Part shown: piece by piece, positions 19,453 through 24,000 of the stretch
Numbering within the stretch: the first letter of the stretch is position 1
How the letters are laid out: each line of letters starts with the position of its first letter
NCBI RefSeq assembly: GCF_023333595.1
Contig: NZ_JAIQZM010000001.1
Span: forward strand, 505,917-529,916
DNA: 24,000 nt
DNA from: Argonema galeatum A003/A1
GTDB taxonomy: Bacteria; Cyanobacteriota; Cyanobacteriia; Cyanobacteriales; Aerosakkonemataceae
Direction of reading: 5' to 3'
The notes under the pieces: model-generated
What the model saw: the letters and a program-made list of their open reading frames with translations, nothing else
Database searches by the model: none
What the model was told of the DNA's origin: nothing
Made by a program: the position numbers and the translations under genes

Positions 19453-20736
19453 CTATTCTAGTAATTTCTCCATCAGACAGTCAGCAATGCGATCGGCCCC
19501 TCCGGGCTTACCCATCCGACGGCGACCATTATCAGCAATCAGTTGCAGTCGGTCGGGATCGCGCAGGAGCGATCGCACGATCTCGGCAACCTCCCTTGGT
19601 TGTTTCGCTAAAATTAGCGATGGCCCCAATAGGCGAGTTTGAGCTTCTGCGAAGGCGGGGGTAAATTGGGGGCCTTTACCTGGGATTGCGATCGCCGGTT
19701 TGCCTAATCCCACAAACTGTTCTGTAGCGGTTCCAGCCATCGCAATAGCAAAGTCTCCTTGCTGCAAGCAATCCCCAAACGCTCGCTGAGTCAAGATCAG
19801 GGTGGATTTTCCCTGGGTAAACACCGATGCCGTAGGGTCGTTAATTGGCAGCTGGGATTCCTCAAGTTGCGGAGATTGCAGACGCCAGCCTTCTGCTTCC
19901 AAGGCTGACCGTAAAGGATCTAAGCTTAGTACTGGTGCGATCGCGCCCAGAAACAGCACTGTGCGGTCGCGAAACCCTTCCATCACCCCAGTTAGAGCCG
20001 GGAGGATTTGCTGCCAATTTGCGTAGGCTTCCGGGGCTCTGGAACCGGGGAGTAAAGTGATTGTGAGCGATCGCGCTTGCTCCACTTTCTCAGCATCTGA
20101 GGAATAAAAAACCGCCCTTGGACTCTCAGGCTCAAGGTCATCCATCATCGGATTTCCCAAATCAAAAGCCGGGATTGACCATTTCTGCAACATTTCGCTA
20201 GTCAGACTATCTCTAGGAAACACTGCTTTACAACGCTTGCGACTCATCAGCCAACGTTCCCAAGGCAGATAAACCGACCCCGACCAACCTTCCCTGCGCT
20301 GCATCTGGGATTTCCTCGGCAGCGGGCCAGCTTCATCCCGCAGATAATATTCCGATTTGGCGGTGCCGACGAAGGCATAAGGAGCCCCACTCAACCAAGC
20401 AAGCAACAAGGGGACAATATCCCCCACGGCTAAGATAGTTCCGCCCTGTTGTTTCCAAGCCTGTACTGCCCTAAACTGCCACCAGAGCAGTTGGAGTAAG
20501 CCGCTCCGTAAATCTCGCCACAAATGACGCCCATCCATATAAATAAAGCCACCGGAGGGCATTTTCCGCGTCGGTGCGATGAGGGGAATTCCTAGCTCGG
20601 TGTAGGCTTGGCCTTCGCCAACTATAGGTAGGGCTGCTATTTTTGGGGCATTGGGACGCTGCTGTAGTTCTTTCAATATCCGAACAGCGATCGCATCCTC
20701 CCCATGACCATTACTCAGGCAAAGTAACTTCATCAA
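19453..20736 (-). CDS. Lipid-A-disaccharide synthase-related glycosyltransferase (LpxB-related family)
   Basis: A 427-aa protein. The N-terminus MKLLCLSNGHGEDAIAVRILKEL and the C-terminal AMAGTATEQFVGLGKPAI resemble the cyanobacterial LpxB-related GT-B family. The assignment rests on recalled family features only. Confidence 0.65.
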   Translation of the reverse strand: MMKLLCLSNGHGEDAIAVRILKELQQRPNAPKIAALPIVGEGQAYTELGIPLIAPTRKMPSGGFIYMDGRHLWRDLRSGLLQLLWWQFRAVQAWKQQGGTILAVGDIVPLLLAWLSGAPYAFVGTAKSEYYLRDEAGPLPRKSQMQRREGWSGSVYLPWERWLMSRKRCKAVFPRDSLTSEMLQKWSIPAFDLGNPMMDDLEPESPRAVFYSSDAEKVEQARSLTITLLPGSRAPEAYANWQQILPALTGVMEGFRDRTVLFLGAIAPVLSLDPLRSALEAEGWRLQSPQLEESQLPINDPTASVFTQGKSTLILTQRAFGDCLQQGDFAIAMAGTATEQFVGLGKPAIAIPGKGPQFTPAFAEAQTRLLGPSLILAKQPREVAEIVRSLLRDPDRLQLIADNGRRRMGKPGGADRIADCLMEKLLE

Positions 20737-20798
20737 TTATAACCGGGCATTGGGCATTGGAAAATTGGCTCTTCTGTACTGACTATGCTATTTGAGTT

Positions 20799-20860
20799 CT
20801 TGAGCAGAGGGGCGCTTGAGCAGAGGGGCACTTGTGCAGAGGGGCACTTGTGCAGGGGAG
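20799..20860. repeat. 16-bp tandem repeat cttgWgcagaggggcR x about 3.9
   Basis: cttgagcagaggggcg / cttgagcagaggggca / cttgtgcagaggggca / cttgtgcaggggag, read directly. Confidence 0.9.
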
Positions 20861-20923
20861 AAAAGAAATAAAAATGTTCTTAAATTGAACAAAAGCATAG
20901 GAACTCCGAAAGAGCCAATTACC

Positions 20924-21634
20924 CTAGCTTTTCTTCGGTGGTATTGGGGATGATGAGCGTGGAAACAGAGAACCAGGAGGCGTTTTTAGTGCAAGCGGTG
21001 GGGAGTCAGCTTGTTGCAGCTGTTGGCGTCCGTTACGGATTATACGCTGCATATCGTTCAACTGCTGCTCAATATTATTGAGAACCCTTTCGGCATATTC
21101 ATCAGCGCCGTTTTGAATGGCATCAGCTTCTGAAATGGCTTTAGCGCGGATCTCCTCCAGTTCCTCTTGAGCTTCCCGGTGCAAACGTTCGATTTCAGCC
21201 AGAGTCTGTTCTTGTGCAGCACCGCACTCATTCTGTACCATTTGCCAGAGTTGCTGCGCCTCTTGTTTTGCCTGCCGAACAATACCCGTGTCATCTAAAA
21301 TCTGTGCGGCGCGTTGCTGGGCCGTCTCAATGATTTTATGGGCGTATTGTTCCGCTTGCTGAAGCAACTCTTCCTTCTCCCGGATAATCGCTTCTGCTTC
21401 TTCAAAAGCATTTGGCAAATTTAGCCGGATGAGATCTAGCTGTTCTAACAGATGTTCTTCATCAACTAACGTACGACGAGTCAGGGGAATGCGTGGACTA
21501 TCGAGAATCATCTCCTCCATACGGTTGAGTTCTCGCTGAATATCTACACCTGCTGTTCCACGTTGGGACAGTTCATCCTGAGAGCTGGGTTCGTCGATGT
21601 CGGGGCTGATTCGGGGTGGGTTTTGGCGTAACAT
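20924..21634 (-). CDS. Coiled-coil protein, DivIVA-like (function uncertain)
   Basis: A 236-aa ORF. The segment [26 protein letters not shown] is followed by about 150 aa of Q/E/A-rich heptad-like sequence, reminiscent of DivIVA or ATP synthase b-type coiled coils. An alternative start at Met39 (21520) would remove the 91-nt overlap with coaD. Confidence 0.6.
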
Positions 21635-22098
21635 TTGTTGTAAATATCTTTTGCAACGTGCTTGGGAACAAGATGATCGACAGAGCCGCCAAATCTTGCT
21701 ATCTCTTTTACCACGCTACTGCTTAAAAAACCATATTCAGTCGAGGTAGCCAGAAAAACTGTCTCGATTTTATCCGATAGTGTCTTATTGGTATGCGCCA
21801 TCTGCAACTCTTTCTCAAAGTCAGAAAGCACTCGCAGACCCCGGATAATTACAACGGCTTGCCGTATTTGGGCATAATTTACGGTAAGACCGTCAAAGCT
21901 GTCTACCTCTATGTTGGGCAGATGTTGCGTGGATATGCGAATCTGGTCAAGCCGCTCTTGCACCGTAAACATGGGCATTTTATTGGGATTGCGTAGTACT
22001 GCTACGACCACTCGCTCAAATAGCTTACACCCGCGCTGTATGACATCGAGGTGTCCAAGGGTAATCGGATCGAAGCTGCCGGGATAGATTGCAATCAC
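21544..22098 (-). CDS. coaD: Phosphopantetheine adenylyltransferase
   Basis: GTG start. Motifs [19 protein letters not shown] (T/HxGH nucleotidyltransferase motif), RGLR..SDFE.E and [13 protein letters not shown]. It carries a C-terminal tail of about 27 aa beyond the usual CoaD end. Confidence 0.9.
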
Positions 22099-22187
22099 AA
22101 AGTAGGGCTGTCAAAGTCTCTCTTGCAGATTATAAGGTATGTTCGTGGTTCATGGTTTATTGCAATGAACTATGACTTAGGCAGAAA

Positions 22188-22254
22188 GCCCCCCTGTACC
22201 CCCAAATCTGGGGGGGACAAGACTTCTTCTCTTCTGATTTGGGGGGACAGGGGC
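22188..22254. repeat. Long stem-loop (stem of about 17 bp with one mismatch, 27-nt loop) downstream of the TnpB-related gene
   Basis: Left arm gcccccctgtacccccaaatc (22188-22208) and right arm gatttggggggacaggggc (22236-22254). Pairing was checked position by position, with one A/G mismatch at 22198/22246. Confidence 0.8.
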
Positions 22255-22470
22255 GTGAGTGCGTAAGTCCTGTGAACTATCAACGATTAGAATGAAAAAT
22301 GTGAATCTCCGATCGCGCCATGCACCGCCGTCTGATGTCTGTGAGCCTTGTAACTGCAACGCTGTTTCTCGGTTCCACCTTTACCGCTTCTAAAAACCTA
22401 GACAAATCTACCCATTGGTAAACTGAAGCTCTCGGTATAAGTCGGCGGTGTAACTTTTGGTCAATCCGAG

Positions 22471-23961
22471 TTAACGCTTTCGCTTGGATGGTGCCCGGTC
22501 TTGCGACTCGACAACAACCTTAACCAACTCAGCCCAGTTAGAGATGTGATAGTAATCGTGCCGACGATTTACTACACCACATTGACCGATAAATATATTC
22601 AGTTGATGTAACGCACTCCATACGTGCTTTCTGGAGTTCACCCCCAGATAGGCGGACACAGAGCGCGGTAATCTTTCCGAGAGATTCATTCCTCGTCTAG
22701 CAATGGCTAGAGCGGCTGCCACATCGGATGACATTCCATACATCCTCGCGTATTTAACCAGCCCAATTAAGCTGGTATAGGCTGGATTGATGTTAATTAG
22801 TTGAATCCCACGATTAGATAGAATTGACTTCAAAAGTTGATAAAAACGGCTATATGCCCAACCAGACAACATCCGAGCATACTTTCTTCCTTTTTCTCTT
22901 AACTGAGTTGTCTTAGCTGCAAAATCCAAGGATTCACAGACAATTGGACAGGCTTTAGTATCAGCTAAAATTGCTAATTGTAGACAAGCATCCACAATAG
23001 TCGCATCTTGCTTGACCTTTGGTAATCCAGAATGATAGGGGATAGAACCAGACGCCTTCAAATTGCCCTGAAAATCAACATACGCCCAACCAATAGAACC
23101 TGGATTGAGATCGATTCCGATGCAGCCATACTCGACAGGTTTACTAATCTTGTTGACAGGTGATGGAGTAAATTGAACGGCTACCGCCCAGCGGTTATCT
23201 TGGCGATAGAAATGCCAAGTTTTAGCACCATTATCCGGTAATCGATTGATATTTCTCTCAAAATTACCCAGCTTTGAACAGATATATTTACCATACTTAG
23301 ACTCTAAGCAATAGGGAACTCTGAATTTAACTATGTTGCCATCCCACTGACAAGTTTGATTACCAAAACTTTCGTCTTTAGAGCCGACGATAAACACTTC
23401 TCCTCTAGGTACTTTCACCTTAATTGGTGCTAACTTGAGAGCCGCTATTTGTCGGTTTAGCTTGTAAATATATCTCTTTTTATGGTGGAGATTAAATCTC
23501 GTATGATACCAGTTGGTTTTCTTGGTGGTTAGAGAAGTTGAGAGAGGAAAGTTACATCCTGTTTGAGAGTGATGCCAATTCTTCTTAGCGTAAAACTTTC
23601 TCGCTAACTTCAGCTTTTTTTCGGCTTTTTCTAGCGATTTATTGGCTGATTTTAATTTTGATTCTAGCTGCTTGATGTGATTGATTATACATACCTTGGC
23701 TGATTCTACTTTCGAGCTTGACAGCGCGAGCATCCCACCGGCATGACGTTTGCTAATGCCATATTTTTTCTGTAAATAGGTATTCCATTTAGACTTATCA
23801 AACTGACTCTCAACTTCTAATAAGTGATTGACTGTCTCAATAGTAGCGCCATAAGAAAGAGCCGCATAATCAGCTAGAAATAACTCAAAGCTGGTCAATC
23901 CTAATGGGGTTAGCTCGTCTATTGGTGTTGGTAAACCCTTGCAGTAAGTGAGAGTAGTCAT
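22471..23961 (-). CDS. TnpB-related RuvC-fold protein (IS200/IS605 accessory-protein-like) lacking the zinc-ribbon insert
   Basis: A 496-aa protein. RuvC-I GCIGIDLNPGSIGWA, RuvC-II PIVCESLDF, then ARMLSGWAYSRFYQLLKSILSNRGIQLININPAYTS, and RuvC-III SSDVAAALAIARRG. There is no Cys between the Glu and the final Asp, so the CxxC...CxxC ribbon is absent. A GGGAGG lies about 13 nt upstream of the ATG. No tnpA is visible, and the window ends 39 nt upstream. Confidence 0.75.
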   Translation of the reverse strand: MTTLTYCKGLPTPIDELTPLGLTSFELFLADYAALSYGATIETVNHLLEVESQFDKSKWNTYLQKKYGISKRHAGGMLALSSSKVESAKVCIINHIKQLESKLKSANKSLEKAEKKLKLARKFYAKKNWHHSQTGCNFPLSTSLTTKKTNWYHTRFNLHHKKRYIYKLNRQIAALKLAPIKVKVPRGEVFIVGSKDESFGNQTCQWDGNIVKFRVPYCLESKYGKYICSKLGNFERNINRLPDNGAKTWHFYRQDNRWAVAVQFTPSPVNKISKPVEYGCIGIDLNPGSIGWAYVDFQGNLKASGSIPYHSGLPKVKQDATIVDACLQLAILADTKACPIVCESLDFAAKTTQLREKGRKYARMLSGWAYSRFYQLLKSILSNRGIQLININPAYTSLIGLVKYARMYGMSSDVAAALAIARRGMNLSERLPRSVSAYLGVNSRKHVWSALHQLNIFIGQCGVVNRRHDYYHISNWAELVKVVVESQDRAPSKRKR

Positions 23962-24000
23962 AGCTTTTTAGCTACCTCCCTCAGTTCTTCTACTATCTTT

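Follow-up and report, generated by a model that had tools for sequence, protein, structure and literature searches.

Does the DNA between the TnpB-related gene and coaD in Argonema galeatum A003/A1 encode a guide RNA, and where does the mobile element that carries the gene end? On the minus strand of the window (the whole stretch of DNA analysed, 24,000 nt), an open reading frame of 496 aa (22471-23961) is followed by a spacer of 372 bp (22099-22470) and then by coaD (21544-22098; TIGR01510, 202 bits). The original prediction, that no credible reading frame follows the TnpB-related gene, is borne out: 22099-22470 contains only frames of 41-71 aa that cross a repeat. The interval is mostly ordinary host DNA with that small repeat in it, and its last 88 bases belong to an IS607 element (Table 1). 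We consider it highly probable that the interval as a whole is a composite, in which the right end of the IS607 element, forming the 3' third of a conserved guide-type RNA (22383-22647), adjoins a host spacer with a MITE.

Table 1. Features in and around the interval 22099-22470; positions above 24000 continue the numbering of the window
Feature	Position	Strand	Basis or remark
Element left end	~24630-24633, beyond window	-	junction from empty site of sister species G002
tnpA, IS607 serine transposase, 200 aa, 3' end in window	23958..24000 (gene to equivalent 24560)	-	NF033518
tnpB, 496-aa TnpB/Cas12-superfamily protein	22471..23961	-	weak HMM matches, family alignment, AF2 model
Predicted omega/reRNA scaffold, ~265 nt	22383..22647	-	RNAalifold and pair counts, 33 loci
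Helix H0 (invariant GUGAA loop, most 5')	22642-22647/22631-22636	-	RNAalifold
Helix HA	22583-22587/22459-22463	-	RNAalifold
Helix HB	22574-22579/22545-22550	-	RNAalifold
Helix HC	22541-22544/22532-22535	-	RNAalifold
Helix HD	22524-22531/22467-22474	-	RNAalifold
Helix H1 (ACCGC loop)	22453-22456/22439-22442	-	RNAalifold
Predicted pseudoknot, uses last five bases	22445-22449/22383-22387	-	model
IS607 right end, 88-bp non-coding tail after tnpB stop	22383..22470	-	33 loci, identical copies, empty site of G002
Right-end terminus TTTTTAGAAGC-GG-T	within 22383..22470	-	GG = crossover, T = fixed right-flanking base
Predicted guide segment, first ~20 nt of host flank	22363..22382	-	analogy with ISXfa1 and ISDra2 (PMC10711439, PMC10097598)
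Host intergenic DNA	22284..22382	.	~91% identity to sister species G002
Stretch absent from sister species, 148 bp	22136..22283	.	G002 joins 22135 to ~22282-22284
MITE copy, 102 bp	22171..22272	.	75 loci in genome, 16-copy alignment
coaD leader	22099..22135	-	host DNA aligned to G002, G006, G010 and G005; directly upstream of coaD start at 22098

Boundaries and identity of the inserted element

A sister species of the same genus (G002) retains the empty site, CTTT-ACC-CCTGT, uninterrupted. Its contiguous matches cover window positions 20974-22135 (97% identity), 22282-22388 (91%) and 24631-25461 (94%), and ACC is found at both junctions of the occupied site (22383-22385 and 24631-24633), reading GGT on the sense strand of the element. 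Comparison of the window with the empty site gives an insertion of 2,248 bp, composed of 22386-24630 and one copy of ACC; on the sense strand, the occupied site is arranged flank-GGT-element-GGT-flank, and the empty site has a single GGT. Because the right end of the element is at 22383, positions 22099-22382 are host spacer. The boundary expected between the big hairpin of the spacer and coaD is thus misplaced, the actual right end being 88 bp past the tnpB stop codon.

Multi-copy relatives have a terminus of the same kind. Scytonema sp. NIES-4073 and Heteroscytonema crispum each possess five copies that are 100% identical within the genome, measure 2.30 kb and 1.85 kb and begin 736 and 287 bp ahead of the ORF, respectively; all have GG at the start and GCGG at the end, and they finish 85-95 bp past the stop codon in ...TTTTTAGAAGCGGT, after which each copy has its own flank. 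This terminus is found downstream of the ORF at 33 distinct loci; in the window it falls at 22383, where the right end reads ...TTTTTAGAAGCGG-T, a conserved sequence in which GG is the crossover. The C before GG is invariant, and T comes after GG in 28 of the 33 loci. That the element would have a definable right end was therefore correctly foreseen, as similarity among copies stops at the equivalent of 22383 and the flanks diverge beyond it; nor is similarity lost right at the stop codon, which in the relatives is followed by a conserved non-coding tail. The last ~45 nt of this tail are conserved as sequence, with two direct repeats (TAGATTT/TAGGTTT) and the GCGG crossover, and a CTAGACAA motif in the tail is present again, inverted, at the element's left end; the repeats and CTAGACAA are probably TnpA sites.

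The gene adjoining the tnpB start identifies the element. The window ends 39 bp upstream of tnpB, within a gene whose stop codon overlaps the tnpB start by four bases (ATGA) in the same orientation, and whose product scores 210 bits (cutoff 110) over positions 2-187 of 187 of NF033518 (transpos_IS607), the profile of the IS607-family transposase, a serine recombinase TnpA with an N-terminal MerR-like HTH. A solo TnpB is ruled out by this intact tnpA, which lies mostly just beyond the end of the window. The element is a complete IS607-family insertion sequence consisting of tnpA, tnpB and the 88-bp tail, and it shows the features of that family: a serine recombinase beside tnpB, no terminal inverted repeats, GG at both ends and in the target, and multi-copy relatives. 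It would have integrated between coaD and a TPR gene by crossover at the GG dinucleotide, the mechanism described for IS607 (PMC10711439), after the split from the sister species. The left end is 3 nt from the first possible start codon (GTG) of the divergent TPR gene (window-equivalent 24634-24640); the corresponding codon of the sister species is GTA, and the real TPR start is therefore probably elsewhere.

The ORF family is widespread in filamentous cyanobacteria, with 752 database matches, the best 120 of which are 60-78% identical, and 60 loci in a scan of genome contigs with the ORF. Its distribution among relatives is patchy: it occurs in nine of 31 genomes (this one and 30 relatives), is often decayed, and is represented in sister species G002 only by a fragment at a different site. 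The Argonema galeatum A003/A1 genome has one copy of the element. Among 38 related loci, 11 have an intact tnpA ahead of tnpB, and multi-copy derivatives that lack tnpA also exist: the 1.85-kb derivative of H. crispum consists of tnpB and both ends, and it is presumably mobilised in trans, because its five copies are identical despite the absence of tnpA.

Other traces of such elements are scattered through the genome. A covariance model of the tail alone, used to search the genome for right ends, picks out three more right-end-like sequences, and the 3.5 kb around each yielded no tnpB homologue. Two orphan sequences of this kind (C42:57200-57271 and C48:59217-59280, both on the minus strand) end in TTTTTAGAAGCGGT, with 91% agreement over 65 nt; the former also retains an invariant block of the scaffold, UCUCUAACUGGG, and has a tnpA fragment 1.1 kb away on its far side. 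At C19:12030-12125 (plus strand), directly after the stop codon of a gene, left-end-like GGTTGGCAACTGTTG precedes right-end-like ...TTTTTACAAGCGGT by no more than 60 nt, a possible mini-IS607 of ~80 bp with no internal ORF. A second, distant TnpB-like ORF (C46:581816-582601, 546 aa, 24-31% identity, TIGR01766 36.8 bits) stands alone between lipid kinase and P-type ATPase genes, 52 kb from the element of the window.

Origin of the hairpins in the spacer

Cyanobacterial MITEs are small elements with inverted ends and internal palindromes. The big hairpin predicted at 22188-22254 exists (~22187-22256, also in the MFE fold), but it is the core of such a MITE rather than a scaffold or a subterminal structure of the IS607 element. 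About 75 loci in this genome match 22188-22272, and copies are also abundant in sister species G002, which has none at this site. The repeat resembles known cyanobacterial MITEs in its copy number, in its 13-bp inverted ends (of the type caggacttacgca / tgcgtaagtcctg) enclosing a palindrome of G and C runs, which is the big hairpin itself, in the short repeats of 5-8 bp that flank the 16 aligned copies (TGAAC at 22166-22170 and 22273-22277 in the window), and in the absence of the stretch from the sister species.

The predicted small hairpin (22147-22172) likewise has a genuine 6-bp stem, GTTCAT/ATGAAC; it sits, like the big hairpin, within the 148-bp stretch that G002 is missing. This gap is 46 bp longer than the MITE; the MITE and its flanking repeat account for ~107 bp, leaving ~40 bp (22136-22170 and 22278-22283) that include the small hairpin. 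A deletion between TATAA and TATCAA in G002 could explain the leftover difference.

The third predicted structure, an 8-bp complementarity between CACCGCCG (22323-22330) and CGGCGGTG (22443-22450), is exact once its coordinates are shifted by one base, and it is the only one outside the MITE; it is nevertheless at chance level, since one or more such complements turn up in ~40% of dinucleotide-shuffled sequences. The conserved ACCGC loop supplies one of the arms, and its real partner is likely to be the terminal GCGGT of the element. The 284 nt of the interval outside the element fold no better than shuffled sequences (z = -1.2). In scans of 22000-22750, terminator-like matches occur on the plus strand only, within the MITE, and promoter matches are at chance level; a weak minus-strand match to a sigma-70 site (22305 to 22276) could serve coaD.

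These results leave virtually no room for the model in which the whole 372-bp spacer is the scaffold, the hairpin is subterminal and the element ends beside the coaD promoter. The presence of hairpins and the absence of an ORF are all that it has in its favour, whereas the empty site of the sister species already refutes it by placing the boundary at 22383; in addition, the hairpin-bearing 148 bp are separate from the element, the relatives lose all similarity beyond GCGGT, and the hairpin is that of a 75-copy MITE. The scaffold cannot be the spacer as a whole, because 22099-22382 is outside the element, and the covarying structure described below runs into the ORF instead.

A covarying RNA structure across the 3' end of tnpB

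RNAalifold detects no consensus structure in the 88-bp tail alone; further helices appear once the last 150-190 nt of the ORF are added. In an alignment of 33 sequences, on which the structure (38 pairs in seven helices) was both derived and counted, 89.5% of the cells form a standard pair, versus 37-46% when the partners are slid by 1-3 columns; the number of cells changed on both sides is 257 versus 27-68, and the covariation score is 0.53 versus 0.09-0.14. In 500 shuffles, none of these three values for pairing, double changes and covariation was ever attained. Depending on the locus, the stem of H1 is AAGT/ACTT or AACT/AGTT (pair 314-327: GC in 16 sequences, CG in 15), and its loop is always ACCG(C/U), complementary to the terminal GCGGU. 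The pairs of the predicted pseudoknot between this loop and the terminus are almost invariant and therefore contribute little covariation. A second ACCGC motif further 5' (~22652-22656; 87.5% paired, no covariation) could, from its sequence, be the partner instead.

Synonymous variation, an independent measure, shows the coding sequence to be constrained over the same region. Synonymous-codon entropy is 0.51 in residues 441-480, compared with ~0.8 elsewhere in tnpB, and 0.61 versus 0.79 from residue 457 onwards (Mann-Whitney p = 0.018), so that reduced synonymous variation spans the last ~55 codons; the position of the stop codon floats between loci relative to the RNA blocks. The covariation, the drop in synonymous entropy and the floating stop codon together indicate constraint at the RNA level. 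A search of 20000-24000 on both strands at E <= 1 matched no Rfam family, RAGATH-18 included. Homologous loci thus do yield covariation, among 33 sequences, but at 22383-22647 and not at the big hairpin, which is a dispersed repeat; the expectation of an omega/reRNA-like RNA ending at the right end of the element was accordingly sound as to the kind of structure and mistaken as to its position, which is largely within the gene and not downstream of it. By analogy with characterised systems, the conserved structure is most likely an omega/reRNA scaffold of ~265 nt that guides TnpB.

In the window copy, HB contains two mismatches and HC one, and the single-sequence fold of this copy is unexceptional (z = -1.6). 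These mismatches, the single copy in this genome and the frequency of decayed copies among relatives would fit an element in decay, inactive and with an RNA structure that is a relic of recent common descent. We regard this as very unlikely: the tnpA and tnpB ORFs are intact with their catalytic residues retained, the insertion postdates the divergence of the sister species, and the family-wide compensatory change implies selection on pairing itself rather than simple identity by descent.

The tail and the structure at the end of the ORF might instead be cis-acting elements that belong to the transposon or to its mRNA, with TnpB having another role or none: at the DNA level, TnpA sites with the crossover; at the RNA level, a 3' stabiliser, a terminator or a translational control. 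The conservation of the last ~45 nt of the tail as sequence and not as pairs, the inverted sharing of CTAGACAA between the two ends and the failure of RNAalifold to find anything in the tail alone are in keeping with this explanation, which is nonetheless unlikely. Serine recombinases work on duplex DNA and need no hairpins; the five helices within the coding region stay paired despite changes on both sides, and the synonymous constraint falls exactly at the helix region. Moreover, a scaffold that spans the 3' end of tnpB and stops at the right end of the element, together with a terminal pseudoknot, is the layout of proven TnpB guide RNAs (PMC10097598, PMC10711439). A guide-RNA scaffold accordingly remains our preferred reading of the structure.

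The TnpB protein and its predicted guide RNA

Sequence models of TnpB match the 496-aa protein weakly. Its score is 34.6 bits against NF040570 (guided_TnpB; cutoff 100) and 19.7 bits against PF07282 (cutoff 26.3), in the RuvC-II region only, and a sequence search of the PDB gave only a chance match. The RuvC triad is D284/E343/D413; its first two residues are invariant, and D413 is present in at least 90% of the 33 sequences. With an AF2 model (pLDDT 75.5) as the query, Cas12 and TnpB proteins account for all of the top 16 Foldseek matches (E = 3e-8 to 3e-5), aligned over roughly the full length, with TM-scores of only 0.2-0.3; the best PDB matches (E 3e-8 to 8e-5, also with low TM-scores) are Cas12f, Cas12g, Cas12m, CasX, the TnpB of ISFba1 (8iaz) and Fanzor2. 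The CCCC zinc finger (TNB) is missing, its place between the YTS block and D413 being taken by ~15 residues free of cysteine. Loss of the finger is on record in some TnpB branches (Altae-Tran et al. 2023, PMC10691335), which likewise lack the C4 finger between RuvC-II and RuvC-III and several of which are associated with a serine recombinase; unlike the RIIIr-4 branch of that study, in which His replaces the RuvC-III Asp, the family described here retains the Asp (D413). Membership in the Fanzor-related cyanobacterial clade with DPG and an alternative Glu (PMC10711439) is ruled out, because the protein has GIDLNPG and the canonical Glu position.

Known systems provide the framework for a mechanism. 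IS607 elements use a GG crossover, and their TnpB uses a reRNA of ~150 nt that crosses the right end and has the fixed right-flanking base within its scaffold (PMC10711439); and a pseudoknot formed by guide-adjacent bases is conserved in TnpB and Cas12 RNAs (PMC10097598). ISXfa1 of Xylella fastidiosa (Yoon et al. 2023, PMC10711439) has the same tnpA-tnpB order, the GG crossover at its ends and target, a scaffold that likewise ends at the right end, and a fixed flanking base, which here is T and takes part in the predicted pseudoknot; its published TAM, GGG, is compatible with the host site GGGG-T. Compared with ISXfa1, the element of Argonema galeatum has a larger protein (496 aa) that is devoid of the zinc finger and falls below the TnpB HMM cutoffs, and a longer predicted scaffold (~265 versus ~150 nt). 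ISFba1 (Ren et al. 2024, PMC11061315) shares the IS607 context, its TnpB structure 8iaz matches the model (E = 5e-6), and its RAGATH-18-derived reRNA also has several stems and pseudoknots; that reRNA, however, is wholly outside the ORF, whereas the RNA described here overlaps ~175 nt of coding sequence and has no Rfam RAGATH-18 match, and the TAM of ISFba1 is AGGAG. The omega RNA of ISDra2 (Nakagawa et al. 2023, PMC10097598) has the same overlap with the 3' end of tnpB, multiple stems, and a pseudoknot that is likewise formed from bases just 5' of the guide; ISDra2 differs in being an IS200/IS605 element with a Y1 transposase, a zinc-finger TNB domain and a 116-nt scaffold, and in having the target motif of the transposon as its TAM.

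If the element works like ISXfa1, ISFba1 and ISDra2, the ~265-nt scaffold RNA would be cut out of the tnpB transcript, possibly by TnpB itself, which is known to process its own RNA (PMC10278001), and would be bound by the protein. Its last five bases, including the fixed right-flanking T, would pair with the ACCGC loop to form the pseudoknot typical of TnpB and Cas12 guide RNAs, and the RNA would extend ~16-20 nt into the flank (from 22382 downwards) as the guide. In the multi-copy relatives, the flank differs at every copy. A genome-wide search with the predicted guide, allowing up to two mismatches in 16 nt, gave its own site as the only exact match and no second match. After excision of the element, the complex of TnpB and RNA would cut the emptied donor site, and repair from the sister chromosome would restore the element. 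The host site is GGGG-T, and the occupied right end is C-GG-T; given this difference, a GGG-like TAM would, tentatively, spare the occupied site. We see about an even chance that this branch of cyanobacterial IS607 elements encodes an active RNA-guided nuclease that does without a zinc finger, uses an unusually long, non-Rfam scaffold of ~265 nt with a pseudoknot between the loop and the last five bases (T included), and recognises a GGG-like TAM that distinguishes G-GG-T from C-GG-T.

Annotation of the locus is to be corrected accordingly, from a solo TnpB to a complete IS607 element whose end is placed to the exact base by the empty site, and from a scaffold hairpin to a MITE. In the literature, we found no experimental test of the zinc-finger-less, ~500-aa TnpB family of cyanobacteria; the boundaries of the element, the predicted start of the guide and the candidate TAM make a test in a heterologous host straightforward. 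The finding is an extension of known IS607 and TnpB biology, not a new principle, and it offers a comparative model of guide-RNA structure for a TnpB family that is common in filamentous cyanobacteria.
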